From Octopus vulgaris (taxonomy: Eukaryota), in the NCBI GenBank assembly GCA_951406725.2, contig OX597827.1:25792001-25856000 (forward strand): a stretch of 64,000 bases of DNA. The letters are read 5' to 3'. Shown in pieces: positions 2,134-51,900 of the stretch. The number at the start of each line of letters is the position of its first letter. Position 1 is the stretch's first letter. Under the pieces are notes generated by a model. That model saw only the letters and a program-made list of their open reading frames with translations. It had not been told where the DNA came from and ran no database searches. The position numbers and the translations under genes are program-made.

Positions 2134-2198
<65 letters not shown>

Positions 2199-2203
<5 letters not shown>

Positions 2204-2350
2204 GTAATATAATATGTGACAATTATTCGGTTGCCATAGTAAAACTCCGAATATGGCAACCGAATAATTGTCAGGTATTATATTACAGATAAATTCCTCT
2301 ATTTACATAATAGCGAGGTCTTATTCATTCTTTTGTTGTCATACCATTAC
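2199..2350 (+). mobile_element. Miniature PLE-derived fold-back (3' end only) in (TA)n
   Basis: Inverted arms 2199-2238 and 2252-2291 with a 13-nt loop. Tail 2292-2350 (aattcctctatttacataata..gaggtct..ttcttttgtt) matches the Penelope tail at 22609-22670. (TA)n on both sides. Confidence 0.8.
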
Positions 2351-6008: not shown

Positions 6009-6021
6009 TATATATATATAT

Positions 6022-6185
6022 ACAGGATGGGCTTCTTGCAGTTTCGATCAATCAAATCCACTCACAATATTTTGGAAGGCCGGGGCTATAATAGGGAATA
6101 CTCGCCCAAGCTTCCACACTGGAACCGAACCCGAAACCGTGTGGTCAGGAAGCACGCTTCTTTCCACATAACCATCCCTACACCC
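6022..6185 (-). mobile_element. SINE family B (CORE-like) 5' half
   Basis: Reverse complement of the ggttc.gttcca.tg.g...cttggg...gtgagtggatttg head seen at 19150, 27363 and 40165. Confidence 0.7.
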
Positions 6186-7413: not shown

Positions 7414-7588
7414 TCATTGAATAGCTTATTATTAGAAGAGTTAATCTTAAAACGAGATCTGAATGTTTATCCACTTAGATTTTGATGAAATCTTCTCTCT
7501 TAATACCTGTATAGGTTTGTGTGCGTATGTGTATGTAATGGACGTCGGAACATACAAAAACGTGAAACTCGGAGTGCTATAAGGTAAG

Positions 7589-18182: not shown

Positions 18183-19510
18183 TATTTGTGTGTGTGCGTG
18201 TATATGTGTGTGTGTGCATATGTTTGTGTGCCTGTATTTGTCCGCCCCAACATCGCTTGACAACCGATGCTGGTGTGTTTACGTCCCCTTCACCTAGCAT
18301 TTCGGCAAAAGGACCGATAGAATAAGTACTAGGCTCACAAAGACTAAGTCCTGGGATCCATTTGCTCGAATAATGGCGGTGCTCCAGCATGGCCGCATTC
18401 AAATGACTGAAGCAAATAAAAGAATAAACTACTATTTTCTATTTTCTCTCCCTGTTTATTTTGGACGACGTCTCGTTTCACCTACAACACTAAGATGTGA
18501 ATTCCTAGGTGAAGAATCCCACAACTATTAATACTAGCACGCATAACTCCAAAAAAATTAAAATGACGAAAACACTATCCATTCAGTTTGGTTAATCCCT
18601 CAGCTACACTTCGAAACAGCTGCGAATAAGGAGACTGATGAAACTGCACCGAAAAGATACCAGGTTGCATATGCAACAGTGTGCAGTCGATGCAGCTGAA
18701 ATGCGAGTAGGTTCGGTAAAGGATGATGCAATTAACTGTTATACAAAATTATGGATGTGAAAAATCTCCGTTCTCCTTATCCTTATTATCTGGTTTTGTG
18801 GTAAGACGCTTGCTTCCCAAACACATGGTTCCAGGTTCAGTACCACTGCGTGACACTTTCATTGAATTTGGTACACGGAAACTGGAGGAAACCCGTCATG
18901 TATATATACATATATACATATTCATCTATGTGTTTGTGTCTGTGTTTATTCCCCCTCCACGCCTTCGCTTTACAAACGATGCACGTGTGTTTACGTCCTC
19001 GTAAAGGAGCGCTTCGGGAAAGGAGGACGATAGAATAAATAATATAAATACTAGGCTTGCAAAGGACAAGTCCTGGAGTCGATTTCTACGACTAAAACTC
19101 TTTGAGGCTATGTTCTAGCATAGCGGCAGTCAAATGATTGAAACATATAAAATCACATGTTTTTAAGTTCAGTCCCGCTGCGTGTCAACTTGGGCAAGTC
19201 TCTTCTACTAAACCCTCGGGCCGACCAAAGCGTTGTGAGTTGAGTTGGTAGACGGAAACTGAAAGGAGCCTGTCATATAAATATTTATATCTGTGTGTGT
19301 GTGTATACGTTTGTGTGTGTGATTTTGTCCACCCACCAGCGCTTGGTAACTGATGCTGGTTTGTTCACGTCCCCGTAACTTAGCGGTTCAACAAAAGACA
19401 CTGATGGAATCTGTACTAGGCTTACAAAGAATAAGTCCTACGCTCGATTTCTTCGACTAAAGGTGGTGCTCCAGCATGGCCACAGTCAAATGACTGAAAC
19501 AAATAAAAGA
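18105..19510 (+). mobile_element. Cluster of three SINE family B copies (bipartite, internal microsatellite)
   Basis: Copies at ~18105-18425, 18790-19150 and 19150-19510 share ...gcggttcggcaaaag..accgatagaataagtactaggcttacaaag...ctccagcatggcc.cagtcaaatgactgaaac. Confidence 0.8.
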
Positions 19511-19571
19511 ATATGCTGATATATATATATATATATATATCTATACAATATGTTACATTACTCGGTAGTCA

Positions 19572-19634
19572 AGATAAAACTCTGAGTTTCAGATGCCGAA
19601 GTGGAAATCCACAACACCATCTCTTCGGTTATCT
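19572..19634 (-). ncRNA. Hammerhead-like motif (variant core CCGAAGA) in PLE 3' UTR, left arm
   Basis: Stem I agataa/ttatct, CCGAAGA, stem II gatg..gtgga/tccac..catc, GAAACTCAGAGT-T. Confidence 0.65.
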
Positions 19635-19828
19635 GGCTATTTGAAAACGTTATGAAAAAATACCGTTAAAAATGAAGGGAAATTACTCTGTTATAACTCT
19701 GCTTTGCCTGCGTACTTATACATCGCTCGCATTTTTCGTCATAAAAATTATATAAAAATACATAAAAATATATAAAAATATATAAAAATATATAAAATCT
19801 TCTTGGGACATAACACAGAAAGCATGTT

Positions 19829-21080
19829 CTATCCGTTTTCTTTAGGGGACCAAAAACGTAACAGAAATTTAGTCACATATGGGCATGATCCGAAAAGCTC
19901 TGTCCTTGTATTTAGACATGTGGTAGGGTCTAAGCTGCTTTTCCAGATAAGCCATCTCTCCATGTCGCATAAACCGCACCTTCCGCTGCCGTTAGTATAG
20001 GGCTTACATCTGGCCAAAATCTTCCATTGTATGTTATAATCGACACCTTTATCTCTTAAAGACCAAATATGATTGGATAATTGTGTCGCTTTTCTTTTGT
20101 TCCAGTGCCTAAAGCTCAAAGTGTGGTTATTGAACCTGGCCTTGAAATTACCCTCTGTCAGGCCCACGTATTTCTTCGTCGAAACGGTGTCTTTAGTGGT
20201 TATAGAGTTTACGGTAGCTTCATATATGATGGTCTTGGACATGCAAGCTCCATTTAGCGGGCACAATTCTTTATTCCTGCATGAACAGCTGTTTTCTTCT
20301 TGTGTTTTTTGTATGTTATGATTGATTATGTTTTTAAAATTGGTAGTTGAACTAAAACTAATTTTTAAATTGTGTCTATTGAAGAGTTTCCTATAAGCAT
20401 GGTTAACTGGAAAATGTCTATCTATCAGTGCTAGGAAATATTTACCTATATTGAAGGCCACCTCGGGTGAGTAAGGGGGCGTAAACCAGATGACCTTCCT
20501 ATTTCTATTATTCCTTTTCCTTATTGTTGGGCTGGTGATAGGTGTATATTTTATGTTTTCGCTAAAACCACTATCTTTTAAAGCTTTATTATAAACTGGG
20601 GCAACGCTATTGAAGATGTCCTCATTAGATGAGAGGCTAGAAATCCTCTTACTAATATTTTTAACTAAATTTTTGAATACTATAGGGGGATGGCATGAAC
20701 CTACATTAATATAACTTAGTCTATCATTGGGCTTCCTATAAGGCTTATAAATATTATTATTAAGATCTAAAGAAACGTCTAAGAAATTGACAACCGTCAG
20801 GTTAGTGTCTATAGTTATACTAAGTCCGAAGTGTTTCATTAACTGGATAATATCCTTCCTAAAACGATCTTGTGCTGGTCCATTTGTATTAGCTGTTAAG
20901 GCGAGGGCATCATCTTTGTAGATGGCGAAATGTACGTTAGGGAATGTCTTACTGAAGGTATCTAGGAGAAAGAGTCCAATTAGATCACAGATGCCTGCCC
21001 CATCATATGAACCCATGCTCACATCGAAAGCGCCCTCCGTGTCGGTGTTTTTTACCCACTTTGCATTCTCACTGAAAAGT
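19829..21080 (-). CDS. PLE reverse transcriptase (C-terminal part) plus GIY-YIG endonuclease; open but 5'-truncated
   Basis: FDVSMGSYDGA, IYKDD, VNFLDV, YRKPN, CSCRNKELCPLNGAC, IIYEA...KYVGLT...FKARF..H, CGLCDME...LN.R.E. The motif style resembles the Naiad-type PLE group (inference). Confidence 0.9.
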
Positions 21081-22317
21081 AATGCAAAGTGGGTAAAAAC
21101 ACCGACACGGAGGGCGCTTTCGATGTGAGCATGGGTTCATATGATGGGGCAGGCATCTGTGATCTAATTGGACTCTTTCTCCTAGATACCTTCAGTAAGA
21201 CATTCCCTAACGTACATTTCGCCATCTACAAAGATGATGCCCTCGCCTTAACAGCTAATACAAATGGACCAGCACAAGATCGTTTTCGGAAGGATATTAT
21301 CCAGTTAATGAAACACTTCGGACTTAGTATAACTATAGACACTAACCTGACGGTTGTCAATTTCTTAGACGTTTCTTTAGATCTTAATAATAATATTTAT
21401 AAGCCTTATAGGAAGCCCAATGATAGACTAAGTTATATTAATGTAGGTTCATGCCATCCCCCTATAGTATTCAAAAATTTAGTTAAAAATATTAGTAAGA
21501 GGATTTCTAGCCTCTCATCTAATGAGGACATCTTCAATAGCGTTGCCCCAGTTTATAATAAAGCTTTAAAAGATAGTGGTTTTAGCGAAAACATAAAATA
21601 TACACCTATCACCAGCCCAACAATAAGGAAAAGGAATAATAGAAATAGGAAGGTCATCTGGTTTACGCCCCTTACTCACCCGAGGTGGCCTTCAATATAG
21701 GTAAATATTTCCTAGCACTGATAGATAGACATTTTCCAGTTAACCATGCTTATAGGAAACTCTTCAATAGACACAATTTATAAATTAGTTTTAGTTCAAC
21801 TACCAATTTTAAAAACATAATCAATCATAACATACAAAAAACACAAGAAGAAAACAGCTGTTCATGCAGGAATAAAGAATTGTGCCCGCTAAATGGAGCT
21901 TGCATGTCCAAGACCATCATATATGAAGCTACCGTAAACTCTATAACCACTAAAGACACCGTTTCGACGAAGAAATACGTGGGCCTGACAGAGGGTAATT
22001 TCAAGGCCAGGTTCAATAACCACACTTTGAGCTTTAGGCACTGGAACAAAAGAAAAGCGACACAATTATCCAATCATATTTGGTCTTTAAGAGATAAAGG
22101 TGTCGATTATAACATACAATGGAAGATTTTGGCCAGATGTAAGCCCTATACTAACGGCAGCGGAAGGTGCGGTTTATGCGACATGGAGAGATGGCTTATC
22201 TGGAAAAGCAGCTTAGACCCTACCACATGTCTAAATACAAGGACAGAGCTTTTCGGATCATGCCCACATGTGACTAAATTTCTGTTACGTTTTTGGTCCC
22301 CTAAAGAAAACGGATAG
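21081..22317 (+). pseudogene. Second (forward) copy of the PLE ORF, with frameshifts and a stop
   Basis: Same protein as the minus copy, but with 1-bp deletions near 21095 and 21670 and an AAA>TAA change near 21781. Confidence 0.9.
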
Positions 22318-22511
22318 AACATGCTTTCTGTGTTATGTCCCAAGAAGATTTTATATATTTTTATATATTTTTATATATTTTTATGTATTTTTATATAATT
22401 TTTATGACGAAAAATGCGAGCGATGTATAAGTACGCAGGCAAAGCAGAGTTATAACAGAGTAATTTCCCTTCATTTTTAACGGTATTTTTTCATAACGTT
22501 TTCAAATAGCC

Positions 22512-22574
22512 AGATAACCGAAGAGATGGTGTTGTGGATTTCCACTTCGGCATCTGAAACTCAGGGTTTTATCT
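22512..22574 (+). ncRNA. Hammerhead-like motif (variant core CCGAAGA) in PLE 3' UTR, right arm
   Basis: Same as the left arm, but stem III reads ACTCAGGGT. Confidence 0.62.
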
Positions 22575-22670
22575 TGACTACCGAGTAATGTAACATATTG
22601 TATAGATAAATTTCCTCTATTTACATAATATTGAGGTCTCTTTCTTTCTTTTGTTATCTTACCGTTTTAT

Positions 22671-22730
<60 letters not shown>

Positions 22731-22854
22731 ATGTGTGTGTATATATATATATTTGTACAATCAGTAAATTGTCGCCATATTTTATTTTTTATTTCGCACA
22801 TGCGCTTTGTGTAATTTGGATTGTGTCGACTAAACTATATACTAGGGTCAGTCT

Positions 22855-23446
22855 GTGAGAAAGACAGCACAGAGAGTGATAAAAATCATGCATCCAGTCA
22901 ACATCATAGTGTTTGGTGACGTTATGCCCACATTCATTTTCCCACACGGCCTCAGACTCAACACGGAGTCCTATATCATGTGCCTGGAGGAGTTAGTGCC
23001 GCCCTGGGTGAAGTGGGTGTCTGCTGGAAGACCCTATGTTTGGCAACAAGTCTCTACACCATGCCACACAAGCTGGAGAAACCAGTTATGGCTGTCAGAC
23101 AATTTCGGAAACCATATCATTCCTAACATTCGGCTACCTGACTCCCCAGACTGTAACCCCCTTGATTATTATTATGTGTGAGGCGCAGTTGAATGAGAGA
23201 CGAACAAAACTTCATGTAACGCCAAAGATGAACTTAAACAAGGAGACCGTTCTGAAGAGTTGCAGGAGATTCCGAAGTCGTCTTGAGGCCACGGTTGAAA
23301 CCAACGGTGTTTTTATTGAATAAATTTTCTCATTAGTATTTAAAGATAATTTTGTGTAATTTTGGTGAATATATCTGTCAAAATGAGATGTCAGTGTTAT
23401 TTTAATTTTTTCGTAATTTAGACAACAATTTATTCACCGTACCCTG
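22855..23446 (+). mobile_element. maT/DD37D-like transposon 3' remnant
   Basis: RPYVWQQ.STPCHTS...PDSPDCNPLDYYV. The right end is ...caccgtaccctg followed by TA. Confidence 0.75.
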
Positions 23447-23984
23447 TATATATACACACACACATGCACACACATACACACACACACACACAGGTGTATG
23501 TAAGTATGTTTGCGTGTGTGTGAATGTCCAAAGTTATATTGGAGCCGTATTGTACTTGGGCGAAACAATTTTAATTTTAAAAAAATGTTCCAGTCTTTTG
23601 TCCATGACTGAATGTGCGTGTGTCTTTGTCTGTGGCTTTGTGTTTGCCTCACCTCCTCCGCACTTTGACTGTGGTTGTTGGTTTGTTTACATCTCCATAA
23701 CTAGCGTCCGAATAAAAGTGACCGATAGAATAGATAAACGACTTTAAAAACATAGAGACCGGAGTCGAATCGTTCGACTAAACTCTCCAAGACGTTGCCT
23801 AAGCATGGCCGCAGACTTCTGTCTAAATAAGTAAAGGATTAACGGCAAACAATGAAGGATAACGCAATTTGAGAGACAATATTAGTAGGAATATAGCTTT
23901 AAAAAATGTTTTTTAATAAAAACCGTTGCGGGTTGGCGACATTTTATTTTGCTTTGAAAATAAATTGAACCAAGGATAAAATAT

Positions 23985-24146
23985 CGATTGATTTTCGTTA
24001 TTTTTCCTCTCTGCCTGCGTGGATTGTTTGTGAGTACTTTGTTTTTGTCCGGGAATCTCTTTTTAAAGTAGAGGAAATAGCTAAGGGTCTCTGGCTGCTA
24101 TTTCTAAACTTCGGTATGCGGTAAAGCAAATCTTTGCTGAACCCTA

Positions 24147-24152
<6 letters not shown>
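23985..24152 (+). mobile_element. 5'-truncated PLE-type 3' tail ending in (TA)n
   Basis: Homologous to 48560-48710 (ctgctatttctaaa..tcggtatg.ggt.aagcaa..tttgctgaacccta), which follows a hammerhead. Confidence 0.65.
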
Positions 24153-24192
<40 letters not shown>

Positions 24193-26686
24193 TATAAAAT
24201 ATATTTAGTATGTGTGTATATATATGTATATACATACATATATACATATAGAGTGAGAGACAGAGAGACAAAGAGAGAGATGCTGGTATGTGTGTGTGTG
24301 TGTTCTTGTACAATATTTTCTAATTTAGAATTTAAAAAATTTAATGCTAGATTACAGACGTGTTTGCTGCGCGGGTGGTTAAGAGCAGGAATTCACAGAG
24401 GGGGATGGTGTGAGAGAGAAAACAGCACCAACGCTGACCAAAGCGCAGAGTGAAGGAGCAAGCTGTACGCTAACGCCAGTTTAAATATGCAGTTGTAACT
24501 GCTGCTAAAAGCAAGCATTCATTCTCGCTTGCAACTGGATATTTTCGACCATCTGCACAGTGGTCAGTGTTTAGTGGTCGAAATTACTACAAAAGCGACA
24601 TCAGATACAGTTTTCTTTTGATATTGTGTCGAAGCTTTTCTTGTATTATTTTGTTTGATTTCGAATGTAATAATAAAAATAAAGCATTAAAATTGTGTGT
24701 ATCTCTCTCTCGCTCTCTCTACCTTGCTTCACTGCTTTAATAAATAATATAAATATTAGATATGCGCGCGTGCTTACGTATATATATAGCGTGTGTAAGT
24801 ATGTGTGTATATACATGTGTGTTTGTGTATGTATTTTATCTAAGTAAAGAGGCTTGTGTGGGTGTATTAGCGAGTGAATAAATAAATATGCTTGAACGAG
24901 AATTTTATTTTCGATATTATTGTGTTTGTTGCTTATTCGCGTGTTTCCATCTATGAAATACAACTCTCACAGCCAGTAAATCTATTCAACATAATTATGC
25001 TTATATATATATATATGTTGTGTATGTAAGGAAATTAATAGAAGACACACCACACGCACACACACACGCAGAACACGCACATATACACACACATACACAC
25101 GCAATACCCATAAGGCTGTTCTGTAGACACGTCTGTCTTATCTGAATCGACGGTTTTCGAGACTCCCAATGTAAATAAAACGCAGCAAGCAGTAAAACAC
25201 GTTTGTAGAAGCCACGTCCCGTATATATCGAGATAAAGAGAATCAATAACGTTATTAAACGAGAACTGATAGGTTGGCGAAATCTCAGGAAAATGGTATT
25301 TGTCGGTGCTTAAAGTTATATAAGGTAAATGTCATCTTAAGTTTAGTAAAACTAGTCCAGACTGAGAATCTATAAAGAACCAAAATAAAAAAAAAGAACT
25401 TTGAATGCTTTCGCGTGTGTTTGTCCAGTTCTGTTTGGTTTCTTATTCTTCAGCTTCAGACATGTTTTGTGCTGAACAAATTGATAGTATTAAGGACTCG
25501 TATGTCAAACACAAATCCACTAATATTGGAGAGTAATGTAACTGAGTTAGTGGACATCCATACACATAGATTGTATTAATACTTACATTATCGATCCTTC
25601 GGTTACCAACATGATAAAGAAATAGAATATGACAACCAATTTACTAACATATCGTATTTTGTCTGTTAATTTATCGATAATAATCATAGTATATTATATA
25701 GAAACAGGGCAACAGTTTTGAGAGGAAGGCTGCGGTGGAGTTAATCGATGCTATCGTTTACAGTACTTGACTGGTATTTATTTTATCGACCATGGAGAGA
25801 TGAAAACAGAAGTTGGCCGTACCGGAATTCAAACACAGAACACAAACTATTAGAATGAATAATTCAGAACAACGACAATAATTATGATTCGAACTTTAAC
25901 AGAATGTTACTATTTCTGAATGAAGGGACACAAATCTGCATGGATAGGAACAAGAGTATTTTGTTTACTAAATATTAGTTAATAGACAATAAAATAGCAG
26001 AATTAAAGCGAAAAGAATCTGAACAGAAACAGCAATGAGTTGGGATTGAACACGGTGCTCTACTGAGTCTGCCATCCATTATTGTAATATTTCTTTCACC
26101 AGGTCAGAAGTTCGCGGGGTGGGAGAGGATTACAGTCGGTTATATAATTTCTAAATAGGTACAAGGCCTAAAATTTTGGTGGCGGGCTAAAAAATTCCAT
26201 CAACAACAGTACAAAACTAGTATTTATTTTATTGACCCCAAAGGACGAAAGCCAAATGGCGACATTTGAACTCTGTTTTTAAAGGCAGGCGAATTGCCGC
26301 TAAACATTCTGCCAGTTCGCCCTCTTATTTCAAGTGTGTTTCTTGAGTGGTAATTTAATTTGTCCACTCTGGATACGACGAAAAGCAAAACGTGCATTGA
26401 TGGTATTTTGGGACCCTGTCAGTAAATAACCCGAACAAATAATATAAGATATTTTAATCGATGCTCTACTGATTCACCGAAAACCCTAATTTCTTAACAG
26501 TTTATTCTATAAAAATGACAAAAATACTAATATATATTCTCATATATAAACGTTTCTATTCCCCAAAACATATGAAGAACGAATCGTGGCAAGAAGCACA
26601 ACAAATAATACAGTCAATCACGCATATAGATTTCTTGGTTTGATTTATCCAACATATAACCAACAGTCAGGGTAGATGTATTTTAA

Positions 26687-27785
26687 TCTATATATATAAA
26701 ACTGAGAATGCGTGTATGTCTGTCTGAGTGAATCCCTAAAACTTGAGAACTACACAACCAATTTCATTCAAATTTTACACATGCCTTACTTAGGGTCCAT
26801 GTAGCGTCATGGGCAAAACAATTTCTAACTTCTTGCCTAGGGCGAGCCCACAGCAATATCATATCTTCTCCACTATTTCAGTATTACGTGTTAAAAGTGA
26901 AACAAAAACACCTCTCTATTGTAATGTCAGATACATTCACTTTAATACTGAAACTATTAAAGTCAAACTATTATATAAGAGGGATGAACCATTAACAGTG
27001 GGCATCCATTTTGCTAGAAGATCCGCTATGATCTTATTTGCTGCATCACTGGTTTTCAATTCATATTAATGAAATTAATATTCAAATTCTCACCCTTTTT
27101 ATCATAAATTTAAATTTAAACCCAGGACCATGTATTTTGGAACGAAGTTTGTTACCACACAGCCACACCTGCACCTAAGTATGTGTGTGTGTGTGTGTGT
27201 ATGTGTGTATGGCTGTATATGTATACATTTATTTATATACATAGAGATGTATATGTATATATGTATATGTATAGATGTATATATATAAAGATGTACATGT
27301 AATATGTACGCATATATGTTCACATATATACACCCATACACACATACACACACACACATACATAGGTGCAGGTGTGTTTGTGTGGTAGCAAACTTCGTTC
27401 CAAAACACACGGTCCTGGGTTCAGTTCCACTGTGTGGTGACTTGGCATGTGTCTTCTGCTATATAGCCTCAGACCAACCAAAGCCTTGTCAGTGTATTTT
27501 GTAGACAAACTGAAAGAAATCTATCGTATATATATGTATGTACATATGTAAGTCTGTGTGTGAGTCTTTGTGTTTCTCCCTCATCAGTGCCTCACAATTG
27601 GTGTTCGTTTATTTACATCCCCATAATTTACTGGTTTCACAAGATTAAGTACCAGGCTTATCAACATAAAAAAGCACTACGCTGTGTCTCATATTTTAGT
27701 TTGCCCACTCGGTTGTATCTATAAATTTATCTTTGTGTGTGTGTGTATAAATATATATATATATAATACACACACACACACACAC

Positions 27786-27842
<57 letters not shown>

Positions 27843-29409
27843 CATGTATGTATATGTGTACATTCATATTTATTATATCAAAGACAATGTCTTATGTGTT
27901 GGTGTATTACTTATACATTCGAAAACTGTTGCACCGATCATAATAAAATTTGAAACACAAAATCGAAGTCTAGGGAGAAGGTTAATACTGTGTGTTTCGT
28001 ACAAAATTACTGAATGGATCTTTATGATATTTGAAACTTAGATTCAATGCATAAAGGCGGGTATAAGGCAATACATTTGGTTTGAATTTCAGATGGCTTA
28101 AAGGGGGCAGAAGCCCCATGAATATTCATAAATTTTCAACCATAGGTAAGTGACACACATCAACAAGTATTCTCAAATTTTCCACTTCACATGAGGATTC
28201 TAAGACACCCTAATGGGGGCCTTAACTCCCAAATTTTAGTCATTTCTTTTATGATCCAAAACTAAATCAAAAGTACTGAATGGCTCTTTACGAAATTTGG
28301 AAATTATATTCTATGCATAAGGGCCACAACCCCCATGACAATTCATATATTCTTGCTGTTGATGAAATTTTAACCATAGATATGAAGTAATATTTATAAA
28401 ATTTCATCTTCTTACAAGTTAGAATGACACCTTCATGGGGACTTAACACCCACAATTAGTTGTACTCTTGGAAGCTGTGGGGTCATCCGAGCATAGAAGA
28501 TGAGCATTATTTGTAATTCAATGGTGCAACAGTGTAAGAGTTTGCTTTGACATACACTTAGATTGTGATTTCTGCAATGTGCTGCATAAATTGTCAAGTA
28601 AATGAGAGGCATCTTTGCCTCCACTAATTCAGTTGCAAAGTGTTGAGTAAAGTTATTTGATTGCAGATCTCATTTCAATCTTTTTTATTATCATACATAG
28701 TCATACATAGTCCCCACATGGTAACATTGATTTCAAGGGCTTCCCAGATGAGTGACTGGTTATTCAAAGACATTTATAGATTGTATATTTATTCTGTCCA
28801 GTTACATATCAGTATAGTGGTCATTTGCAAACTCCAACTTTCATTTCTCCTTAGCCCTCACATCACACAGTAGTTAATGTTGATTTCAGTTGGGTCACGC
28901 CCTTCCAATGGCTATAGATTCGTGATGCATCTTACGGCTGTGCCTGTCACCTGCATTGTAATAACTAGGGTCCTGTAGCTGACTGCTTATTGTGATCATT
29001 CATCTTTTGGTTTCCTGTAGCTTTGCTCTCTTTTACAAACCCAGTGAACATATAGTTCCTATTTCAAAGAAATTCAAACAATTGATATAAAACCCAAGTT
29101 AAAAAGATTTTCAACAAGTCAACTTCTTTGGTTGACATTAAGAGCTCCATGACTCCATTTTTCAGGAGTAAAATCCTTTTAACAGGTTCTATAAGACTGG
29201 AATTTTGGAATATGGGCATAAAAATCAGTAGTATGGGATACATGTGGCGCGCTTACAATTTTGTATGGGTGTGTAAAGAGGGAAATAACCCTCATCTGCA
29301 ATTTTGATGAAATTCGAAACAGGTATTCCAGTTCATTACAGAAAATATAACAGAAAAGTCTAATTCTTTAATTGTATGTAACTCGGGCAACGCCGGGTAA
29401 CTCTGCTAT
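26687..29409 (+). mobile_element. Probable non-autonomous Helitron with nested SINEs
   Basis: 5' A|TCTATATATATAAAA...gtctgtctg...caaccaatttcattcaaatttt. 3' GC hairpin ctcgggcaacgccggg followed by CTAT|T (a degenerate CTAG). Internal sub-repeats near 28008 and 28275. Confidence 0.65.
27363..27665 (+). mobile_element. SINE family B
   Basis: Head gcaggtgtg..tgtgtggtag...ggttcagttccactgtgtgg and a degenerate 3' half. Confidence 0.7.
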
Positions 29410-30738
29410 TTGTCTATAAGCGTCTCTTCTCATCTGTGAATTGCACGACAATCTGTATTAACAGTTGACTCTATGCGCGCATTGGCTCCTCAATTACACT
29501 TCATCTCAAATATAAACATGAACATTCCGCCATATTTGCCACTTTTGATATATGTTAAATATCCCTGGTTATAAAGCGAATGGCTTTTTCTTCTTACTTA
29601 ATGGAGAGTTTCTGAAATGGCCGCTTCTCGCTTCTCTCGAAAATATGTTTCTTCTCCCACCTCACAACGAGCCTTCAGATCCCTTCAGATTTGATTTGTG
29701 CCTAATTTTCTCATTTCGATATTTGTTACTATTTTCAAGAAATTTGTTTGTCATCGTCCACTCTGAAACCGAGCAAGAAGTCACCATTTTGCCATCCCCG
29801 GACAAAAAGTATCTTCTACGCGACAGCTGACTTCCGAGATGGCCTTTCTGGTCAACCTCAACGCTCCAGCCGCAAGAGCAATAGGCAGTGCTATTGGAAC
29901 AGCTATCTTCGAATCCTATTAATTTTTTTGCGACACATAGGATAGAAAGCTGCGAAAGGATTTTCGTTTTTATGACCCAACTCACAAAATTCAATTCTCT
30001 GATTGCGCCTTCAGTTGTTTTGCATCAACCCCAGCGCCTGAAGTAGGATACAACTCGGGGGAATCCTTTTAATGATTATACGGAATTGTAAACTCATGCT
30101 TCTCATTTGACCATATTGATTTATAAGAGAGACAATGAGCTAGATGTATCACTTAATATGTTCTTCACTGTTACCCTTATATTCCGACATCCCAAAATAA
30201 TGAACGAATATTCCCCGTACAATCTGTATTTGTCTTCGAACTTCGTTCTCAGCCTTTCTTTGTGCATTTCATACTCGTACAGACATTCCTAATGATCTTC
30301 TTAATTGCATAAACATCTTTTTTGTGAGAAAAATGTCGAGCAACTCCTGATAACAGACTGGAAGCATTTGCAATATCATTAACCTAGGATTTCTGATTCT
30401 AATGAAGAATGGCACGAACAAGCCTGATGCTACTGATTTATTAGGATCATTGGCACTTTAGACTGAGGTGTGTAGTTCTATAGAGCAAGGGGATTTTAGG
30501 GATAGGAGTCACTGACAACAGACTGTCAGACATTCGCAGCTAAGTTCGATGGGTTTGCAGTTAGATTTTCGGATTCGTATTAATGTTTATGTTTAGGCTT
30601 CGATTTGGTAGAGGGTTAGATACTATGGCAAGAATACCGTTTCTTTACAACATGTCCAGATGTTGCAACTTTCGTTTGTTCTCTGAAGAAACGTATCTTT
30701 ATACACACACACATATATATATAAACATATAGATACAT

Positions 30739-30741
<3 letters not shown>

Positions 30742-30791
<50 letters not shown>

Positions 30792-30805
30792 AACACACAC
30801 ACACA

Positions 30806-30878
<73 letters not shown>
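30742..30878. repeat. (CA)n microsatellite
   Basis: Simple repeat. Confidence 0.95.
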
Positions 30879-30881
<3 letters not shown>

Positions 30882-33599
30882 GGACTGGCTTCGGAACAGT
30901 TTCTTTGAAGCAACTTCTACTCAGAATGTATGAGGTAGCCTTTGAACATAACAGAATTCACTTGCCGCACAGTCTGAACGACGATGGTTCTATATGAGTG
31001 AACAGCTATTTTTCTAACGAAGCAACCTCACGCGCACCATCATTGTTATAACTTTTGAGATATATTTCTGTGGTCAATCCAACGTGTAGCAGTCAATTAC
31101 TGACGTTATTTCAAATCCCTTGACCAGACACATGTCCTTCCTCATATCAATATCAAGAGTATCAAGAAATGTTTACGGAATAGTAATATTGGTATTTATA
31201 AAATTTCATCATTGAAACACACTTTGTATTATATAATTCTTATTAATTATACATCGCCTAGCATCTTGGCAAAGAATAAAATCGATCCCAGCAATGTTTT
31301 GATCAACCACAGAAAAAGCAAGGTGGAATTGAATGCGTTAAAATTTGAACTTAAATCGAAGGGAAATTGTTCAATTTATTTTGGTCTGTATCTTCGAGAT
31401 TTTGGTATTTACAGACAGCCATGTATAGCCATATTGATATCTATCCTTTCTAATATGAGCGCAAGGCCTGTAAGTTTGGTAGATGGGCTAGGCAATTACA
31501 TCGATCCCAGTGTTTTACAGTATTTATTTCATCGACCCTAAAAGGATAAAGGGCAGACTTGATGAGGGTACGTAAAACTAGGAGCTTTTTCCTCCGGTGC
31601 AGGAATGATCTTGCCGTATCACTACCTTAATATTACATACATAATGGCAACACTAAGGGGAATTACTAGCAGGAATTTTAAAGCATCAGAATGTTGCAAT
31701 ATCTATCCCGACTCTCCGAATTCAAATTTTGCCATGGTCAGTTTTGTGCTTTATCATTTAGGGATTCGATAAGGGAGTTACCAGTTCAGAGCTAGTACTG
31801 TATCTTTTTCCCCACTAGCAATCACATCTTGGAGGTTTGACTGGCCAGAGGTGGAAGAAAAGAAAGTCTGTCTGCGATTGTTCAGGATTGCTAAATATAT
31901 TCGGGATAGCTGGAACCATATTTCTATTTACTTTAGGCCTAAACCTAAAAGTTTGGTGAAGAGTCGCTCACATCGACCCAATAATCAACTAGCACTTATT
32001 GCATCGACCTAGAAAGGATGAAAGGGCAAAGTTGGTCTATGCAAAATTTCAAAAACAAAGCGTGAATGCCACTCAGCATTTCGTTCAGTGAGCTAACGAT
32101 TCAGCCAGCTCGATGCCTCCTGCGAGATCCATATTAATACCAAACCATTTTGAATTGCATATGACGTCTCTAATTCAATAGCAGCACCGTAGAATAGAAG
32201 TCATTTCAATTGTAGTTTATATTTCTAACCTCGAAACTCTCCTTTCACCTACATCCCCAATGTATTATTTTGCTCATTCTTTACGTCAATCAATCTCGTT
32301 TTCATTCTATTGACGCATCTGCAAATTTATGTCAAGAGAGAACACTTCAGAAAAGACAAATCAACTATTTTCAATTTAAAAAATGCGACTCACACTATCA
32401 ATTATTGTGCCGTTGTATCGTAATCATGTTGCCAGATATGTTGAGTAACAGTGCAATTCACGAAATAAAAATTTTTGATAGAGTGTAACAAATTTTTCGT
32501 ACATGAAATAATATTGCTGGAAATACGCTACACATTTGGAGAGTAGTGATAACATACGACTATACAATTACATCATTGAATATCTTTTCAATTATTTTGA
32601 ATAATTTTTAGTAATATATTTTATATATCTCATTCATATGCTCTTTCGTCAAATTAAAATTTGTAAAAAAATAATTTATTATTATTATTATGTATCAACT
32701 GTAATTTGATGTGAATATTTCCTGTGTACAATTTGTTCTTTCTGTAAATTATCTCGATAAGTAGAGACATTGGAAATTTTACTAATAGACATAAAAAAAC
32801 AAATGCATCAAAAATAATATCAGAGTAACTATTTTCTATGCTGCAATAATTGCAGTTCTCAATGTGGTTATAAATCTTTCTTTTATTTCTCTTTCCTACA
32901 ATTCTTTCATTAATATACTATTGAACACAAAATAGCTCACACAATATCGATTCCTCTTTATTAATAAGATTCAAAACTATATATCGTGTAATTTATAAGA
33001 ATCCTATTTCCAAGCGACCCTTTAGTTATTCTGTGCGTTCGTTGTATCTATTTTGTAATCTTAATAATGGCATCATTTTATTCGTAAAATTTAGTCTTTT
33101 CTAATTTTTCTGATATCAAATGCTATTATATTGCCTAGAGTCAAAACATAGCATAATTTAATCTAGTAATGTATTTTGTATTTTCATAAATGACTATTTT
33201 TCTTTATCAGATCTATCATAAATAGGTGGTCGTTTTGTTTTTACTTTTAATTCAGAATGAAAATGCATTGCCAGGAAACGATGCAATGGAATAATAATAT
33301 ATCCTAGAGTTGCTTAAACAAACCTTATACAAGCTGTACTTGAAACGGAATAATGGAAAACGAAATATTATCAGAAGAAAGAAGCTGTTGGCGATAGTGA
33401 AAAAGTTGTGACGAACACTTATTCACAGAAAAGGATTGTAATAATTTATTTCGACCTCAATTCATAGTTTATCGACCATTAAATAGCAAAAGCTATGAAC
33501 TCAATATCGGAGTATTGCTGACTTCAGGAGTTAGAAAAGTAAGGTGAACTGCAACAGCAATAATGGTGAGAATGCAAAGATTTGAAAGTCCATTCCCTC

Positions 33600-33760
33600 G
33601 GGGAAGCGGTTACGTTGATCACAGCAACCACAGTACTTCGCTGGTAGCTTCTTTATCGATCCGAAAGAATGAATGGCAAAGTCGACCTCGGCGGAATTTG
33701 AACTCAGAACGTAAAGTCGGAAGAAACACCGTTATTTTGGCCAACGTGCCAGCTAGCCGA
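33600..33760 (-). mobile_element. SINE family A
   Basis: ggcaaagtcgacctcggcggaatttgaactcagaacgtaaag. Confidence 0.7.
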
Positions 33761-33767
33761 CTTAATC

Positions 33768-33823
<56 letters not shown>

Positions 33824-33827
<4 letters not shown>

Positions 33828-34330
33828 GCCCTGATGCAGTACCAGGCAGTGACTCTCAGGGCTTCTAATCTTAACTGATTGGAAGTATTATCATATACAT
33901 GGTTTTGTCTTGGTATAAAAGATGGGCTACAGAAAATATGCCCAATACCACAGATTTTCTTGTCAGATTGACCTTAAGCAGTTGAGCATGTCCCTTAGTG
34001 ACTGACGCTATGTGCTTCTCTGACCACGTGCATAAGTATTGGAGGAGCATCATAGCCATGTGTTGAAAGGAATTCTTTGGGGTTTGGAAACATGGGTGCT
34101 TCGTTCATCATCCTTACACAAACCTTATTCAGGAACCTTTTGAGCGGAATGGGCTACTCGACCAGAAGAAAATTCTAACAGGGCCCCACCTGCAAGTTCA
34201 TCCGTTCTTGATGTGAGATCACCATGTCGCGCACATGTGGTTGTGATGCATGTTCCTGGTGTACCCTTATTAGACGGGTAGTGATTATGGGTATATTGGG
34301 CTTCATATAATTGTACCCCAATGTCACTCA

Positions 34331-34331
<1 letters not shown>
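33824..34331. mobile_element. Unclassified ~500 bp insert between two (AAT)n arrays
   Basis: Complex, GC-richer segment bounded sharply by (AAT)n on both sides; no ORF. Confidence 0.45.
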
Positions 34332-34366
<35 letters not shown>

Positions 34367-34386
34367 TTAATAATAATAACAATTAG

Positions 34387-34530
34387 GAGAAGAAGAAGAA
34401 GAAGAAGAAGAAGAAGAAGAAGAAGAAGAAGAAGAAGAAGAAGAAGAAGAAGAAGAAGAAGAAGAAGAAGAAGAAGAAGAAGAAGAAGAAGAAGAAGAAG
34501 AAGAAGAAGAAGAAGAAGAAGAAGAAGAAG
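34387..34530. repeat. (GAA)n array
   Basis: Simple repeat. Confidence 0.95.
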
Positions 34531-35004
34531 AACCCTTTCTACAACAGGCACAAAGACTGAAATTTTACCGGGTGGGTTTAGCCGATACGACCCAATCCAG
34601 TGATAAAGTGGTATGTTTTTCCAGGCTACATCCTTACTAACATCATGGAATCTCCCCTGAGTTCTATTGTAGGAGAAATTGTGACTTGAGTCCCACGGCC
34701 CTTTCATAGGCTCTCTTAAATTCGACACCATTTGAACTCAGATCACCGCCAAGCATTGTACACGACTCTCTATAAGCTCTGCATCTTCGTCACCTTCAGA
34801 ATGATAATTAGAAGGTAAAAGATACACAATAGTACAATTTCATACCTCTAAGAGAGCTCAAGTGAAGTATCAGTCACGTAATGTTGCAAATAAATATCAG
34901 TTTTTCATAAGTTTCATCGGGGATTTTAAATGCAAAACAAAACGTTCTTCTATTTACATAAAGTATTTGTCAAGCTTTTATTTTGGAAGTATATATATCC
35001 TCTG

Positions 35005-35200
35005 TATTTAAGGTCTGAAATTTTGTGGGAAGGGTCTAGTTGATTACATTGATACCAGTGCTCAACTGGTACTTATTTAACTGACCCCAAATAGATGAAA
35101 GGAAAATTGGATCTCGGTGGAGTTTGAACTTAGAACGTAAATAAAGAAGACATACCGCTAAGTATTTGTCCGGCGTACTACGAATTCAGCCAGTTCGCTT
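35005..35200 (-). mobile_element. SINE family A
   Basis: actggtacttattt...gatgaaagg...tttgaacttagaacgtaaa. Confidence 0.65.
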
Positions 35201-35204
35201 CATA

Positions 35205-35274
<70 letters not shown>

Positions 35275-35649
35275 GCTAGCTAGCTAGCTAGTTATCTATC
35301 TACCTACCGACCGACTTTTACATTGAACAATTCACTTGACGGTAGGATCAACAAAAACTTACTCAATGAAATATCAATCAACGAATATAATACGTTGTAT
35401 GTGAGGTACTTCAGGTTTGTTCTCGATTAGTGAAATAGCTGCATGGATTTGTATAGTATACCGAAAACGACCCGGCAGTCGTTCAGGCTGAACATTTACC
35501 AGCTCGTGCACAGTGCACTACACAAATCCTTCTGATTACTTCACTATCAAAGCATGAAGTAGCTCGTTTATCTACTGTGATAATCAAATTATGCATGTAT
35601 TTATGCATTGATGTATGTACATGTGTGTACATATGTGTGTATGTATGTT

Positions 35650-36395
35650 TCTTTTATATTTTGATTATCATAAATGTTCCACTGAAGAGGGAGTCGGTTT
35701 CCAACAAAGATACAAGGCTCCATTTTTGGGATGCTGTCAACACAGGCAAACTCAAATTTGGAACTTGAGAAAAGTCTTGCATATTTTTATAGATCCACCC
35801 ACAGACTGGACTTGTAATGTACGAATCAGCCGGTCAATATCTTTCTCAAAATTCCAGTTTATCTAGATTCTCCTTTAACAAAACCTAATTGAATATGAAT
35901 TTATAGTCTGGATATAGAAGCTGGAAGTTTCGAAGCAGTTGTCCATAGATATCCTGTTTTTCTTTGATTTTCAAAAGGATATTTATATCTTCAGGGCAAC
36001 TAACCTCTATGATAGTAGATACCTTTGCCCCTCTATGCCAAACAACAATATCCGAGCTGTTATGCTTACATTTGACAGACATTTTGATGGGAATATTCCA
36101 TCAGTATTCCTTGAATTGGTGTTTATGAATGTATTCCATAACAGGGATTTTCTAAGTTTATTTCAAAACAGTCTTCTTTGCGGATGGCATTGTAAATTGT
36201 TTTAGCAACAACATCGTACCGCTTAGGGAGGTAGTATCGTGACGACATTTTAGGACAGCTATAAATCACATGCGTAATATTTTCCAGAGAAACATGACAT
36301 AGGCTACATATGCGGTTGCACATTGAGATCAAAAGGGCGTCACTGTCTCTCTCGTTCACCTGGTACTTTGTGGTAATCGCCTGTTCCTGGATTGC
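35650..36395 (-). mobile_element. R4/Dong-like non-LTR retrotransposon 3' fragment (CCHC plus RLE endonuclease)
   Basis: CSLCHVSLENITHVIYSC (zinc knuckle), RYDVVAK, EY.WN, HNSSDIVVW...IIEVSCP...KEKQDIY. Flanked by (TACA)n on the element strand. Confidence 0.8.
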
Positions 36396-36513
36396 AAACG
36401 CATAGGCTTATGTATGTATGTATGTATGTATGTATGTATGTATGTATGTATGTATGTATGTATGTATGTATGTATGTATTATGTATGTATGTATGTATGT
36501 ATGTATATATGTA

Positions 36514-36555
<42 letters not shown>

Positions 36556-36681
36556 CATACAGAGAGAGAAAGAGAGATGTAGAATATTTTAATGCGTACA
36601 CCAGTGTGTGAGTGTGAGTGTGCATATATATGTGTACTTTGTGTGTGTGTGTGTGTGTGTCTGTGCGTGTGTATCTCTGTG

Positions 36682-36714
<33 letters not shown>

Positions 36715-37129
36715 ATCTCTGTGTTTTGCAGCAGTGTGTAGCAAACCGAAGTAACTACTTGAATCAATATGGTAAGAAAGGTAAACCACTAAAAACCGAT
36801 GCTCAGTTTGTCTACAACCAGAATACATTAAAAAGCGAACACCGAACATCAAGTATTTTTATTATAAGACTCTGTTCAATTTGTCTCCTGTCCTACTGTC
36901 TTTCTCCCTTTCATTCTTTCTTAACGTTTCGTATCCGTTTCATATAATCATATCTATTTGTATGTCCCATTCTCTTCTAATTCTCCGATTCAAGCGTCTG
37001 AACGAAATTTTATTGTAAGTTTAAATTCATTTCTTTCATATAAACAGTATATTATCCTACATTATATTAGATTTATCATATTTGACTCGCATATATATAT
37101 ATATATATATATAAATACACATGTATATA

Positions 37130-37182
<53 letters not shown>

Positions 37183-38522
37183 TTCGTTGAGAATATTTAG
37201 TCGTTTCTCCAGTTGTGTATTATTCCTTTGCAGAGAAAAGAAAAAAAAGTCAACTTTGAGGAAGAAACGGTTGATAATTTCTGCGCTACATTCACAGTCA
37301 TTCAACGTTTTATTCAGCATATGTATTAATAGGGTCGGAGGTTTCGAGGAGATTAGAGGACGTAAGGCGCATTTCTGCAATATTTCTCTTCTTGTTCTTA
37401 TAGATCTGGTTTTAATAATCATTTCTTTGTTCTGTAGTAATATTTAGTAATGGCGTCGCTTTATTCAATACGGAATGTCATGTATAGCCAAGTGAGTACC
37501 ATACCATAAAATGTGATTCACCAATCAGATGTAATATCTTGTCTTACGTAAAATTAATATATTTAGTGGTTTATAGTAAATTATGGGGTGACGTAGCATT
37601 GCAAACTGAAGTCCCTTATGAAGAGACATTTACTTCAATTACGCCTTTAATGTTATAAGAAAAGATACGAATGTCTTAGCATCTGATTTTACTGCTCTAA
37701 GTATCAGTCAGTGAAGTGTTTAGTTGCACAAATATAAATATATTAACAAAATTAAGCCTGTGTAGCAATTCTGAGAGATAATTTATTCTATGGAGCGGAA
37801 TTATCATGTAAATATCAATCGATCGCTCAATTAGATCGATAAAGCTATCTGTTTCTTCTTTTTCTTTTCAAAAACAAATGTCTAATTTTCTATTCCCTCG
37901 TAGATCTGTATTATAAAATAGCTTAATAATAGTTATTTTACCTCCATTGTCTGTAGAGTAAAATTAGTATTCAATGCTGTTCACCCGGTGTGATGCACTT
38001 TGTGATGGAATTGTGGCTTAAATATCATTGGTAACAATACAGACGAACACTTCAATGTTATAGACTTGAGGATACGAAATTCTCTGGGGATTTATGCTTC
38101 TCTTTTTCTTTTTCCTCTTTCATAAATATTCTTCTTCTATCGATCAGGCCGAAATCAAATCGATTTTATTGCCATCAATCCGAAAAAAAAATCATCATTT
38201 CAAAGAGGTATTTCATTAAATATAACAGTGAACGTGCCAGATATAGCTTTAAACTACCGGCAGTAGTATAATATGAAAAGACTTCTTTTCAATATTTTAT
38301 ATCTCCGAATGTCAGAATTGTAATTGATTTTCCGTGATATGAAATCCATTTTCGATTTATTAATATCTCTACCAACGAAGAAAGGATAAAGCATGTAGGT
38401 TTTTTTCTCTCTACTTATTTATTCTTTTTTAACAGACTTGATCAAAAGAATAAACAAAGTCTAATATCCGTTTTTTTTTCTACAGTAAGAAAAAGTACTC
38501 CTTTCAGAAAAATAAAAAAGGC

Positions 38523-38578
<56 letters not shown>

Positions 38579-39149
38579 TAAAGAAAATAACTGAAAGAAA
38601 ATACGTTTGTAAATAATGCAAAATATAGATGTTAGTATTGCTTATTACAATATTTATAGTGCCAATAAATGGCGGAACATTGTAAGAAAGAGAAAATTAA
38701 TTAGATTTACAAATGGCACCGTGTCATCCGTTTCTTCTTTTTTATGTTGGTTTAACTGTGTGAGTTTTGGTATTGTATGACAGAATTTATTCCGAGATTA
38801 CAATGTTCTGTCAAGCCATGCTATAGGTTTTCTTAACCTGGTGGAAATTATTACTAAGGTTATGGGTTTCGCTTTATAACACCGAATTGTCTTCGAGTTA
38901 ATGGTTTCTAAAGGTATTCTGTATCACATGGAAGATTATTGGCATGTCTATTGTTAGGAAACTGATACACGAGATCACTTTCGTTGTAGATGCCGTCTCA
39001 ATTACTTAATAATAATCATGATAATAATAAAAATAATAACAACAACACAAACAAAACGAGCTCAGCAGCAGTGGCAGCACAAATAGCAGCATCAAAGATA
39101 ACAACAAAAACAACAACAACAATAACAGCAGAAGCAACAATAATAATGA

Positions 39150-39865
39150 TATAGATTGCGTGAAATAATGAGGGATACAAATACCTTGGGGTGATGCAAA
39201 ACGATAGAATAATGGTGGGAGAAATGATAAAGGAAATCTCTAAAGATTAGAAGAGGAGAAATAGGAAGGTGCTCGAAACAAAAATAAATGGAGGGAATAT
39301 CATTAAAGCAATAAATACATGAGCTATGCCAGTACTGAAATGCTCTGCTCGCTTTCTGAAATGGACAAAGGTCAACCTACAAAATTCGGATAGGAGAATT
39401 AAAAAGTTCGTCACATGGCACAACACTCACTAGTGTAACAGTAACACTGAGAGATTCTGCCAACGAAGAATGGAAGAAAACAGACGATTACTAAACGCGG
39501 AAGATACTGTTACTCCGTGATTTTGGGGTTGAAAAATTAAGTTGTGTGAAGAGAAGGAACACTGTCGGCAGCTAGAGATTTCCCAAAAGTGTCTGAAACA
39601 GATATAAAAGACAATAGTGCAAGCAGATCGAATGAAATAGAATTACATAGCCAATCCATACAACCGAGAATGTTGGAAGTAACGAACGCTGGATCTGTCT
39701 GACGGGTGGAAACCTGAAGCGAGAGATGGAAATGCTGATTATTGCTGCTGAGGGTCAAATTTTTAGAACAAATCCTATAAAGGCACAAATCAACACGGTT
39801 CAGACGACAAATGTAGAATCCGCAATTAAGGAGAAAAAAGTATCATACCACAGCTTAGTGAGCTA
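39150..39865 (+). mobile_element. Degenerate R4/Dong-like RT C-terminal fragment
   Basis: EGYKYLGV...RKVLETKINGGNIIKAINT*AMPVL..., with stops. It follows an (AAT/AAC)n tract. Confidence 0.65.
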
Positions 39866-40125
39866 AAACTAGATAAATAAAAAAATAATTGGGATACCGA
39901 ATTTTCCAAAAGAAATACGAGCATAGGCAGATCTTCAGAACTATAGTCTATGTAGTGATTTCTGAGAAAGGAATGGAACTCGGGATCTTGGGGTTAGTAG
40001 TCCGTGCTATAAACCACTACGCCATATGCCCGTATCAAATATACTTGAACTGCCTTGACAAAAGGTTTGTCTTCCCTAACTACTTTAACCTATATATTTA
40101 CGCGTATGTGTGTAAGTAAACATAA

Positions 40126-40164
<39 letters not shown>

Positions 40165-40165
<1 letters not shown>

Positions 40166-40490
40166 GTGTCCCACTGCGCGGCAAGTGTCTTCTACTATAC
40201 CCTCGGGCCGACCAAAGCGTTGTGAGTGGATTTGGTAGACCGAAACTGAAAGGAGCCTGTCATATAAATATTTATATGTGTGTACATATGTGTATGTATG
40301 TGTTTCTTGTTTGTGATTGTGTTTGTCCCCCCCCCCCCAGCATCGCTTGGCAACCCTTAGCGGTTCGGCAAAAAGTCTCCGACAGAATAAGTATTAGGCT
40401 TACAAAGAATTAGTCCTGGGGTAGATTTATTTCACAAAAAGTGGTGCTCCAGCATGACCGCAGTCAAATGACTAAAACAAGTAAAAAAAG
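40165..40490 (+). mobile_element. SINE family B
   Basis: gcaagtgtcttctactataccctcgggccgaccaaagcg...ctccagcatgaccgcagtcaaatgac. Confidence 0.8.
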
Positions 40491-40505
40491 TACATATATA
40501 TATAT

Positions 40506-40536
<31 letters not shown>

Positions 40537-40573
40537 GTATATATACATAGTAAAAAAGTACATATATATATAT

Positions 40574-40836
40574 GAAACAAGGTGGAAAAAAAAGAGTACT
40601 CAAATACCAGTGGTAGAGTAATATGTTTAATTTAAAGCAGCAGAAAATTCAACAAAACCTGTTACTCTGAGTTTCCCGTTGCCGTTCATCGGACAGTTTT
40701 TGCTAAAATAGAACCGATAGAACTGGATAGAATTGACATATCGGTTCTATTCTAGCAAAAACTGTCCGATGAACGGCAACAGGAAACTCAGAGTAACAGG
40801 TTTTGTTGAATTTTCTACTGCTTTAAATAAAGTATA
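40574..40836 (-). mobile_element. PLE-type fold-back unit with a hammerhead in each arm, in (TA)n
   Basis: Arms ~40621-40719 and 40739-40836, 19-nt loop, unduplicated tail 40574-40620. Confidence 0.82.
40659..40696 (-). ncRNA. Minimal hammerhead-like motif (variant core CCGATGA)
   Basis: ctgt-CCGATGA-a-cg(GCAA)cg-g-GAAACTCAGAGT-A-acag. A mirrored copy lies at 40762-40799 (+) with one stem II change. Confidence 0.68.
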
Positions 40837-48329: not shown

Positions 48330-48722
<393 letters not shown>

Positions 48723-51524: not shown

Positions 51525-51900
51525 ATCCGAACATGAACAAAGAGAAAACACAACAACGCGAGGACGTGGAACAAGTTTAGTGTTATTGGACGCTCATGAA
51601 AGGAAAGAAAGAAGGAGGACTTAACGTTTCGAGTGGAGCTCTTCGTCAGAAGGAAGGGAAGACGGAGAAAGAAAATCGCCAACGATACACACGCGGTCAC
51701 ATACACACACACACATACACGCACACACATATATATATACGACGGGCTTCTTTCAGTTTCCGTCTACCAAATCCACTTACAAGGCTTTGGTAGGCCCAGG
51801 GCTGTAGGAGAAGATACTTGTCCAATGTGTCACGCAGTGGGATTGAACCCAGAACCATGTGGTTGGTAAGCAAGCTGCTTAACACACAGCAACTCTTGGG
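51370..51900 (-). mobile_element. SINE family B with a nested hammerhead-bearing insert (51521-51700)
   Basis: Head at 51740-51900 and 3' half at 51370-51460. The insert sits in the internal microsatellite. Confidence 0.75.
51620..51652 (-). ncRNA. Minimal type I hammerhead-like motif
   Basis: ctt-CTGACGA-a-gag(ctcca)ctc-GAAACGT-T-aag, with a palindromic AACGTT stem III. Confidence 0.7.

Follow-up and report, generated by a model that had tools for sequence, protein, structure and literature searches.

Penelope-like elements (PLEs) of the Hydra clade, as described in PMC8557442, carry type I hammerhead motifs in their 3' untranslated regions (3' UTRs), with a short stem I and a quasi-palindromic helix III that has a one-base loop, and their architecture includes (TA)n targets, inverted truncated copies and tails (File S2 of that study, e.g. 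Penelope-3_HM, Hydra-2_aMil and Hydra-1_oBim). The minimal or dimeric PLE hammerheads of Cervera and De la Pena 2014 (PMC4209133) are likewise of type I with a palindromic helix III, and that account proposes a dimer mechanism for them, with low in vitro activity and many single truncated copies. Here, we describe a 64,000-nucleotide (nt) stretch of Octopus vulgaris DNA (contig OX597827.1; hereafter the window, with all coordinates relative to its first letter), in which motifs resembling both groups were found. They are type I hammerhead motifs at the 3' ends of PLEs, one of which has a Hydra-clade open reading frame (ORF; family A), the other being an ORF-less fold-back (element C), and in both elements the core reads CCGANGA, with C in place of U at position 4 (C4 instead of U4).

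Established knowledge is used here for the numbering of hammerhead positions and for what the uridine turn does. A CCGA variant of the viroid PLMVd was reportedly described by Ambros and Flores in 1998, according to papers that cite them. The U4C change is known as a natural viroid variant with much lower activity in vitro that still permits infectivity (PMC3088659), it recurs in the citrus-associated viroid-like RNA CtaHVd-LR1 (PMC9608096), and CCGA hammerheads of zeta virus ZV1(-) and of both strands of betavdl786 are reported to cleave, during transcription (10.64898/2026.09.16.752053). These viroid-like hammerheads share the same U4C but belong to replicating circular RNAs (and in the zeta virus and betaviroid-like RNAs are of type III), whereas the motif described here is of type I, has an unstable helix III and is fixed in a multicopy retrotransposon family. 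All 26 Hydra rows of PMC8557442 File S2 have CUGA, although the descriptor used there required CUGA, so that C4 would be missed. Our literature searches found no PLE family reported to have a CCGA core, an earlier mention being possible, as Lunse et al. 2017 on similar motifs lay outside our coverage. What is new here is thus a CCGA core fixed in a PLE family, U4C itself being already known from viroid-like RNAs, and judged by those precedents the CCGA core in PLEs is not a new ribozyme class.

A sequence-only reading of this DNA had placed hammerheads at 22512-22574, 19572-19634 and 40659-40799, with different stems and the same U4>C change in two otherwise different elements, and both claims stand: the CCGANGA core and a stem I in register were found at each place, and C4 is present in all four copies (Table 1). 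In the family A plus-strand copy, stem I (6 bp) pairs 22512-17 with 22569-74, the core lies at 22518-24 with C4 at 22519, and stem II (22525-37/22542-54) has 13 positions with 3 mismatches, followed by an extra unpaired U (22555), GAA (22556-58), helix III (22559-67) and a cut predicted after 22568. The minus-strand arm of element C has a stem I of 4 bp, an A.G followed by a 2-bp stem II, a GCAA loop and a cut predicted after 40663; in the plus-strand arm one G>A change disrupts a stem II pair. GAAA, A15.1-U16.1, H17 and stems I-III in register are present in the motifs of both elements, and the canonical CUGANGA core is absent from all four copies and from the family A consensus. No alignment between element C and family A was found beyond the helix III region and motif, and homology of the two elements outside the motif was rejected on this ground. 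Since each pair of copies represents the two arms of one fold-back, the four motifs amount to only two independent events.

Table 1. Hammerhead motifs, their carrier elements and the associated reading frames, in window coordinates
Feature	Position	Strand	Details
Family A hammerhead motif	22512..22574	+	CCGAAGA core, stems I-III in register
Mirror family A hammerhead motif	19572..19634	-	helix III ACTCAGAGT as in family consensus; model E 0.58
Element C, ORF-less fold-back	40570..40831	.	arms 40627-40719 and 40739-40831; one-sided tail ending in (TA)n
Element C hammerhead motif	40659..40696	-	core CCGATGA, helix III ACTCAGAGT; 21.6 bits, E 0.0034
Element C motif, second arm	40762..40799	+	20.9 bits, E 0.0052
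Family A insertion (Hydra-clade PLE, fold-back, 5'-truncated)	19535..22665	.	arms 19535-21052 and 21095-22611
Family A ORF, reverse transcriptase (RT) with GIY-YIG endonuclease	19835..21061	-	open C-terminal 409 aa, YKDD and CxCx5C linker; from translation and homolog search
Plus-arm copy of the ORF	21083..21700 and 21784..22317	+	one-base gap, split frames
Family B remnant (3' end from a sister family of A, short fold-back)	2196..2345	.	breaks off within helix III, leaving TCGGAGT (2245-2251, minus strand)

A search of the window for CCGANGA-N8-34-GAAACTCAGAGT gave three matches, whereas 100 shuffles gave none. The fourth copy misses this pattern because the family A plus-strand arm reads GAAACTCAGGGT (22556-22567), AGAGT being found only in the mirror copy, and the helix III that the earlier reading had described as shared is accordingly borne out for the mirror copy and element C, but not for this arm. 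Scans for the C4 core together with the shared helix III retrieved 12 viral and at least 120 prokaryotic stretches; a loose stem test was passed by none of the 12 and by 1 of the at least 120, an in-register stem I of at least 4 bp was found in 0 of 12 and 2 of at least 120, respectively, and these matches are treated as chance. An in-register stem I of the length seen in both elements is accordingly rare among chance matches. A hammerhead model built from related PLE hammerheads, with hits scored by E value, recovered the element C copies (E 0.003 and 0.005) and the family A mirror copy (E 0.58). Rfam hammerhead models gave no match at either motif at E up to 10, and no hammerhead was among the 150 of 246 Rfam matches listed for the window.

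Family A or part of it is contained in 20 listed sequencing runs from 10 studies, and four of the 24 listed runs (X1, X3, X7 and X12) were aligned to 22412-22665. Run X1 contributed 3679 contigs aligned at a likeness of at least 80%, its depth being summed over contigs and not a measure of copy number. No other base reached 4% of this depth at any core position (22518-22524), nearby variants of 5-14% do appear, and the listed variants include neither an insertion after A9 nor a loss of the extra U. In X12, which stems from a different study and carries a different organism label, a single contig spans the whole stretch and keeps C4; the two contigs of X3 cover the tail only and X7 gave none, so that neither bears on the core. 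C4 is therefore the family A consensus, and the change in the window copy is not decay, in agreement with the earlier reading, for which a CUGA family consensus would have been the refutation. By contrast, A>G at 22565 is private to the plus-strand arm, approximately 99.8% of X1 depth having A. Family variants of at least 4% within 22512-22574 occur at 22541, 22546 and 22555, all of them unpaired non-core positions, of which there are 13 among the 63; the probability of this placement (p ~0.007) is post hoc, the copies are not independent, and 22565 was excluded as the window arm itself deviates there. For element C, both arms carry C4, which places the change before the insertion.

Position 22509, nine bases before the core, is the start of 19 loose ends and of three contigs that are long and diverged, with AT-rich sequence upstream, and the summed depth climbs ~40-fold from 22412 to the motif. 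Both observations hint at many short copies beginning at stem I, or at relatives conserved only from there.

For comparison with relatives we used 79 related PLE loci (L001-L079), taken from the best 80 of at least 514 confirmed stretches. The PLE model gave 77 hits in these loci at E up to 1, the best 71 of which represent 61 distinct motifs, and position 4 is U in all 61 of these strong motifs. Across all 77 hits there are 75 U4, one C and one A, the latter two both in weak copies of L023. As this model favours U4, a plus-strand scan anchored on helix III and allowing two core mismatches was also run, and C4 was found in 0 of its 67 hits, which came from 58 of the 79 loci. A quick ORF tree sets family A beside P0001, P0002 and P0017 and apart from all 78 metagenome loci included, and hence a 3' UTR could be read in none of its close relatives.

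The fold itself is shared across the clade. Among the 50 3' motifs found in the 79 loci, 44 could be aligned, with 90% of cells paired versus 62% in shuffles and with two-sided changes in 12 of 14 pairs, which makes the clade fold real and strongly covarying. The helix III sequence ACTCAGAGT is the commonest among the relatives (8 of the 61 distinct motifs, all with U4), and in PMC8557442 File S2, ACTC-N-GAGT occurs in 5 of the 26 Hydra rows and exactly ACTCAGAGT in Penelope-3_HM. A shared helix III as the mark of a new class was therefore rejected, helix III being clade-wide and normally combined with U4. In a by-eye comparison, stem I and helix III of family A differ from those of the published Hydra-1_Obim motif yet still pair, indicating that the fold was kept along the family A branch. 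U3-A8 core covariants, a variant already described for schistosome PLEs, were observed in Hydra-type PLE hammerheads at L027:2392-2438 and L051:1930-1981.

Canonical cores are found in the same window, and a genome-wide switch to C4 was rejected because CUGA motifs lie at 48466 and 51649. The plus-strand motif at 48461-48545 has a CTGATGA core, a long stem II and an ACGCGT helix III, follows directly on (TA)n (model E 0.14), and is probably the end of another PLE type. On the minus strand, 51620-51652 holds a minimal motif with CTGACGA, an extra A, a 3-bp stem II, an ACGT helix III and a 3-bp stem I, and folding lends it no support. With helix III clade-wide alongside U4, CCGA known in viroid-like RNAs and CUGA motifs in the window, the conserved variant ribozyme class suggested by the sequence-only reading goes further than the data.

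Both elements depart from the consensus a second time, at the base of stem II, a feature on which the earlier reading was silent. In family A, a G-C pair closes stem II and an unpaired U (22555; C in 7% of depth) precedes G12. In 57 distinct relatives the stem II closing pair is U.U in 37, G-C in 16, G.U in 3 and A-U in 1, with A.G in none. A canonical 10.1-11.1 pair directly before G12 is thus found neither in family A (extra U) nor in element C (A.G), and in this respect both differ from the Hydra hammerheads tabulated in PMC8557442. The variants presented in PMC4209133 also differ, the core change there being U3-A8 and not C4, and the extra base lying 5' of stem II and not 3' as in family A.

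Nearest-neighbour folding models, which ignore Mg2+ and tertiary contacts, suggest how C4 might matter. With U4, pairing between the core and UCAG in helix III is predicted at probabilities of 0.91-0.98 in three window copies, versus 0.05-0.35 with the native C4, and relative to U4 the native base raises the predicted active monomer fold ~36-fold in family A and ~23-fold in element C. In the eight relatives with the ACTCAGAGT helix III, C4 would lower the predicted core pairing from a median of 0.59 to 0.04, yet all eight have U4. Between two copies of the motif, the palindromic helix III is predicted to form an 8-bp homoduplex (-7.4 kcal/mol). For 56 related U4 motifs, pairing of the core with the region of helix III is predicted at a median of 0.48, or roughly half the time; this pairing is possibly a general monomer off-state of the clade, or else an artefact of the folding model.

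The explanation that we prefer, at about even confidence, is a weakened but still selected dimeric hammerhead that would self-cleave slowly as a dimer, through the predicted pairing of the palindromic helix III. In a tandem transcript, two motifs would fold together with helix III formed between the copies, and cleavage would take place after GUU in family A and after GUA in element C, more slowly than with CUGA. C4 would remove the predicted mispairing of a CUGA core with UCAG of helix III, and element C may share it through convergence, or through common descent that the sequence no longer shows. This explanation is favoured because the rest of the core and the helices are kept, because family variation avoids them, and because two elements with unrelated stems share the same position-4 change, one known to be compatible with cleavage; the motif moreover sits behind an RT-endonuclease ORF in family A. 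Several results weigh against it. As monomers, both elements are predicted to adopt the hammerhead fold at <0.2%, a helix that takes A9 dominates the predicted ensemble of family A (77%), and the dimer minimum is predicted to be 7 kcal/mol below a dimer whose cores are open. The advantage of C4 can be a possible one and not a need, since the eight relatives with the same helix III keep U4. The extra-U register of family A (U between C11.1 and G12) occurs in no Hydra-type row compared, element C closes a 2-bp stem II and its GCAA loop with A.G, and the family A plus-strand copy is not among the PLE-model matches at E up to 5; these stem II departures and low model scores count against full activity. 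Run X1 may derive from the same sample as the window, the C4 of element C is seen in just one insertion, and C4 also arises in single copies, as in the low-scoring (25 bits), decayed-looking CCGA copy at L023:2419-2472. In the literature, PLE motifs are described as slow even with CUGA (PMC4209133), nearly all single changes in CUGA led to low activity in a mutational scan (PMC9901934), catalytic mutants of a PLE hammerhead left in vitro insertion unaffected (PMC11167929), and the known active CCGA examples are viroid-type motifs. The motif copies in the window are inverted, on opposite strands, with no tandem copies seen there.

The main rival, less likely but strong, is a ribozyme that is effectively dead. 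U4C and the extra U would recently have cost a family A master its catalysis without halting its spread, as insertion would not require cleavage, and element C would have decayed separately. The fold would still be there because little time has passed since the loss, or because the RNA structure serves the RT-endonuclease. The second defects at the stem II base of both elements, the predicted misfold that takes A9 and the one decayed-looking C4 copy among the 77 model hits in relatives agree with such a loss, as do the dispensability of cleavage in vitro for the anole PLE (PMC11167929) and the spread of Naiad PLEs without canonical hammerheads reported in PMC8557442. However, apart from position 4 both elements have kept the whole core, together with the cleavage triplet and the palindrome of helix III, neutral decay is not expected to give the same base at the same position twice, family variants avoid paired and core positions, and natural CCGA cores do cleave in the cases given in 10.64898/2026.09.16.752053. 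At the other extreme, C4 and the altered stem II base could be co-adapted, forming a fully active subclass shared by several Hydra families of the host lineage. The 10.1-11.1 region is changed in both C4 motifs, both changes are consensus in family A, and folding predicts that C4 releases the core from helix III; but the stem II changes of the two elements are unlike each other, the case rests on two elements (n=2), one of them single-copy, the published octopus Hydra element has CUGA (PMC8557442), and other repeats in the same window have CUGA motifs, which leaves this improbable. A variant in which several Hydra-clade families of the host lineage independently fixed C4 as negative design against CUGA:UCAG zipping, and with a remodelled stem II base would form an active dimeric subclass, appears unlikely, though somewhat less so. 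We give the lowest weight to a switch, the proposal of the sequence-only reading that the CCGAAG core (22518-23) pairs with CUUCGG in stem II (22545-50) and keeps the ribozyme off until a trigger refolds it. The 6-bp complement is present and can pair, and in the mirror copy the fold makes up 12% of the predicted ensemble (0.01% with U4), but in the plus-strand copy it makes up only 1%, other misfolds dominating; one of its pairs is lost with the variant T22546C (8% of depth), whose site is unpaired in the hammerhead fold, no covariation was seen for it, and element C mispairs differently. The off-switch is therefore a minor predicted fold and very improbable as an explanation.

The hammerhead of PLEs may serve in transcript processing or be a dispensable passenger, and family A, with two core departures, offers a natural test of this. 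If its motif cuts, the tolerated core is wider than the CUGA descriptors used in censuses, and whole families have been overlooked; if it is inactive, a PLE family has multiplied in the absence of cleavage, and the in vitro result of PMC11167929 would then hold in a genome too. Either outcome would be of specialist interest and would not define a new kind of system. If the negative-design variant were true, CUGA-based genome searches would miss the subclass.

The carrier of the family A motif (19535-22611) is a young, 5'-truncated Hydra-clade PLE fold-back, with arms that are 99.6% identical in alignment, flanking (TA)n tracts and a one-sided tail of ~55 nt (22612-22665). Its ORF has 311 homologs (best 52% in the homolog search), with none of its relatives in the viral contig set. 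The GIY-YIG region following the RT scored Pfam E 0.027, under the cut-off, and aligns with homologs of ~700 aa. The linker motif CSCRNKELC (CxCX5C) is present, and of the CxxC and CxH motifs that surround conserved E and N, CxxC reads CGLC and CxH is found in the plus arm, with H>Y in the mirror arm. RWK, DKT and CxCX5C are given in PMC8557442 as Hydra-clade marks; the consensus of the ORF homologs has N-terminal RWK and DKT as well as CxCX5C, and the window copy is 5'-truncated. In one hand-translated RT stretch, Hydra-1_Obim and family A are identical at 35 of 55 residues and both have DDAL, the aligned homologs having DDG.

Element C, with 89 of 93 arm columns identical, is probably a 3' end from another PLE family of Hydra type, an assignment drawn from its match to the motif model and from its architecture (fold-back, one-sided tail and (TA)n). 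Copies of a dispersed repeat (75% alike) at 19193-19545 and 40180-40523 adjoin the family A fold-back and element C, both of which sit at or near the (TA)n that ends this repeat.

The family B remnant follows the same plan as family A and element C, i.e. a fold-back with a one-sided tail and (TA)n ends. The loop at 2239-2251, listed in the sequence-only reading as holding a related remnant, does align with family A over helix III, the cleavage site and the tail, as a true homolog, but it has no core and is silent on position 4. Loose contig ends at 22612 in runs X1, X3 and X12 match the upstream sequence of this remnant and thus display the sister family.

Elsewhere in the window, an isolated helix III look-alike was noted at 7565-7575 on the plus strand (GAAACTCGGAGT followed by G, with no core upstream), and imperfect fold-backs at 27119-27421, 58951-59163 and 61095-61330 had no hammerhead motif in the scans made. 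A Tc1/mariner-type element with 238-nt inverted ends (95%) occupies 4113-6022 and includes a transposase fragment on the minus strand (5031-5633; Pfam HTH_Tnp_Tc3_2, E 6e-18).

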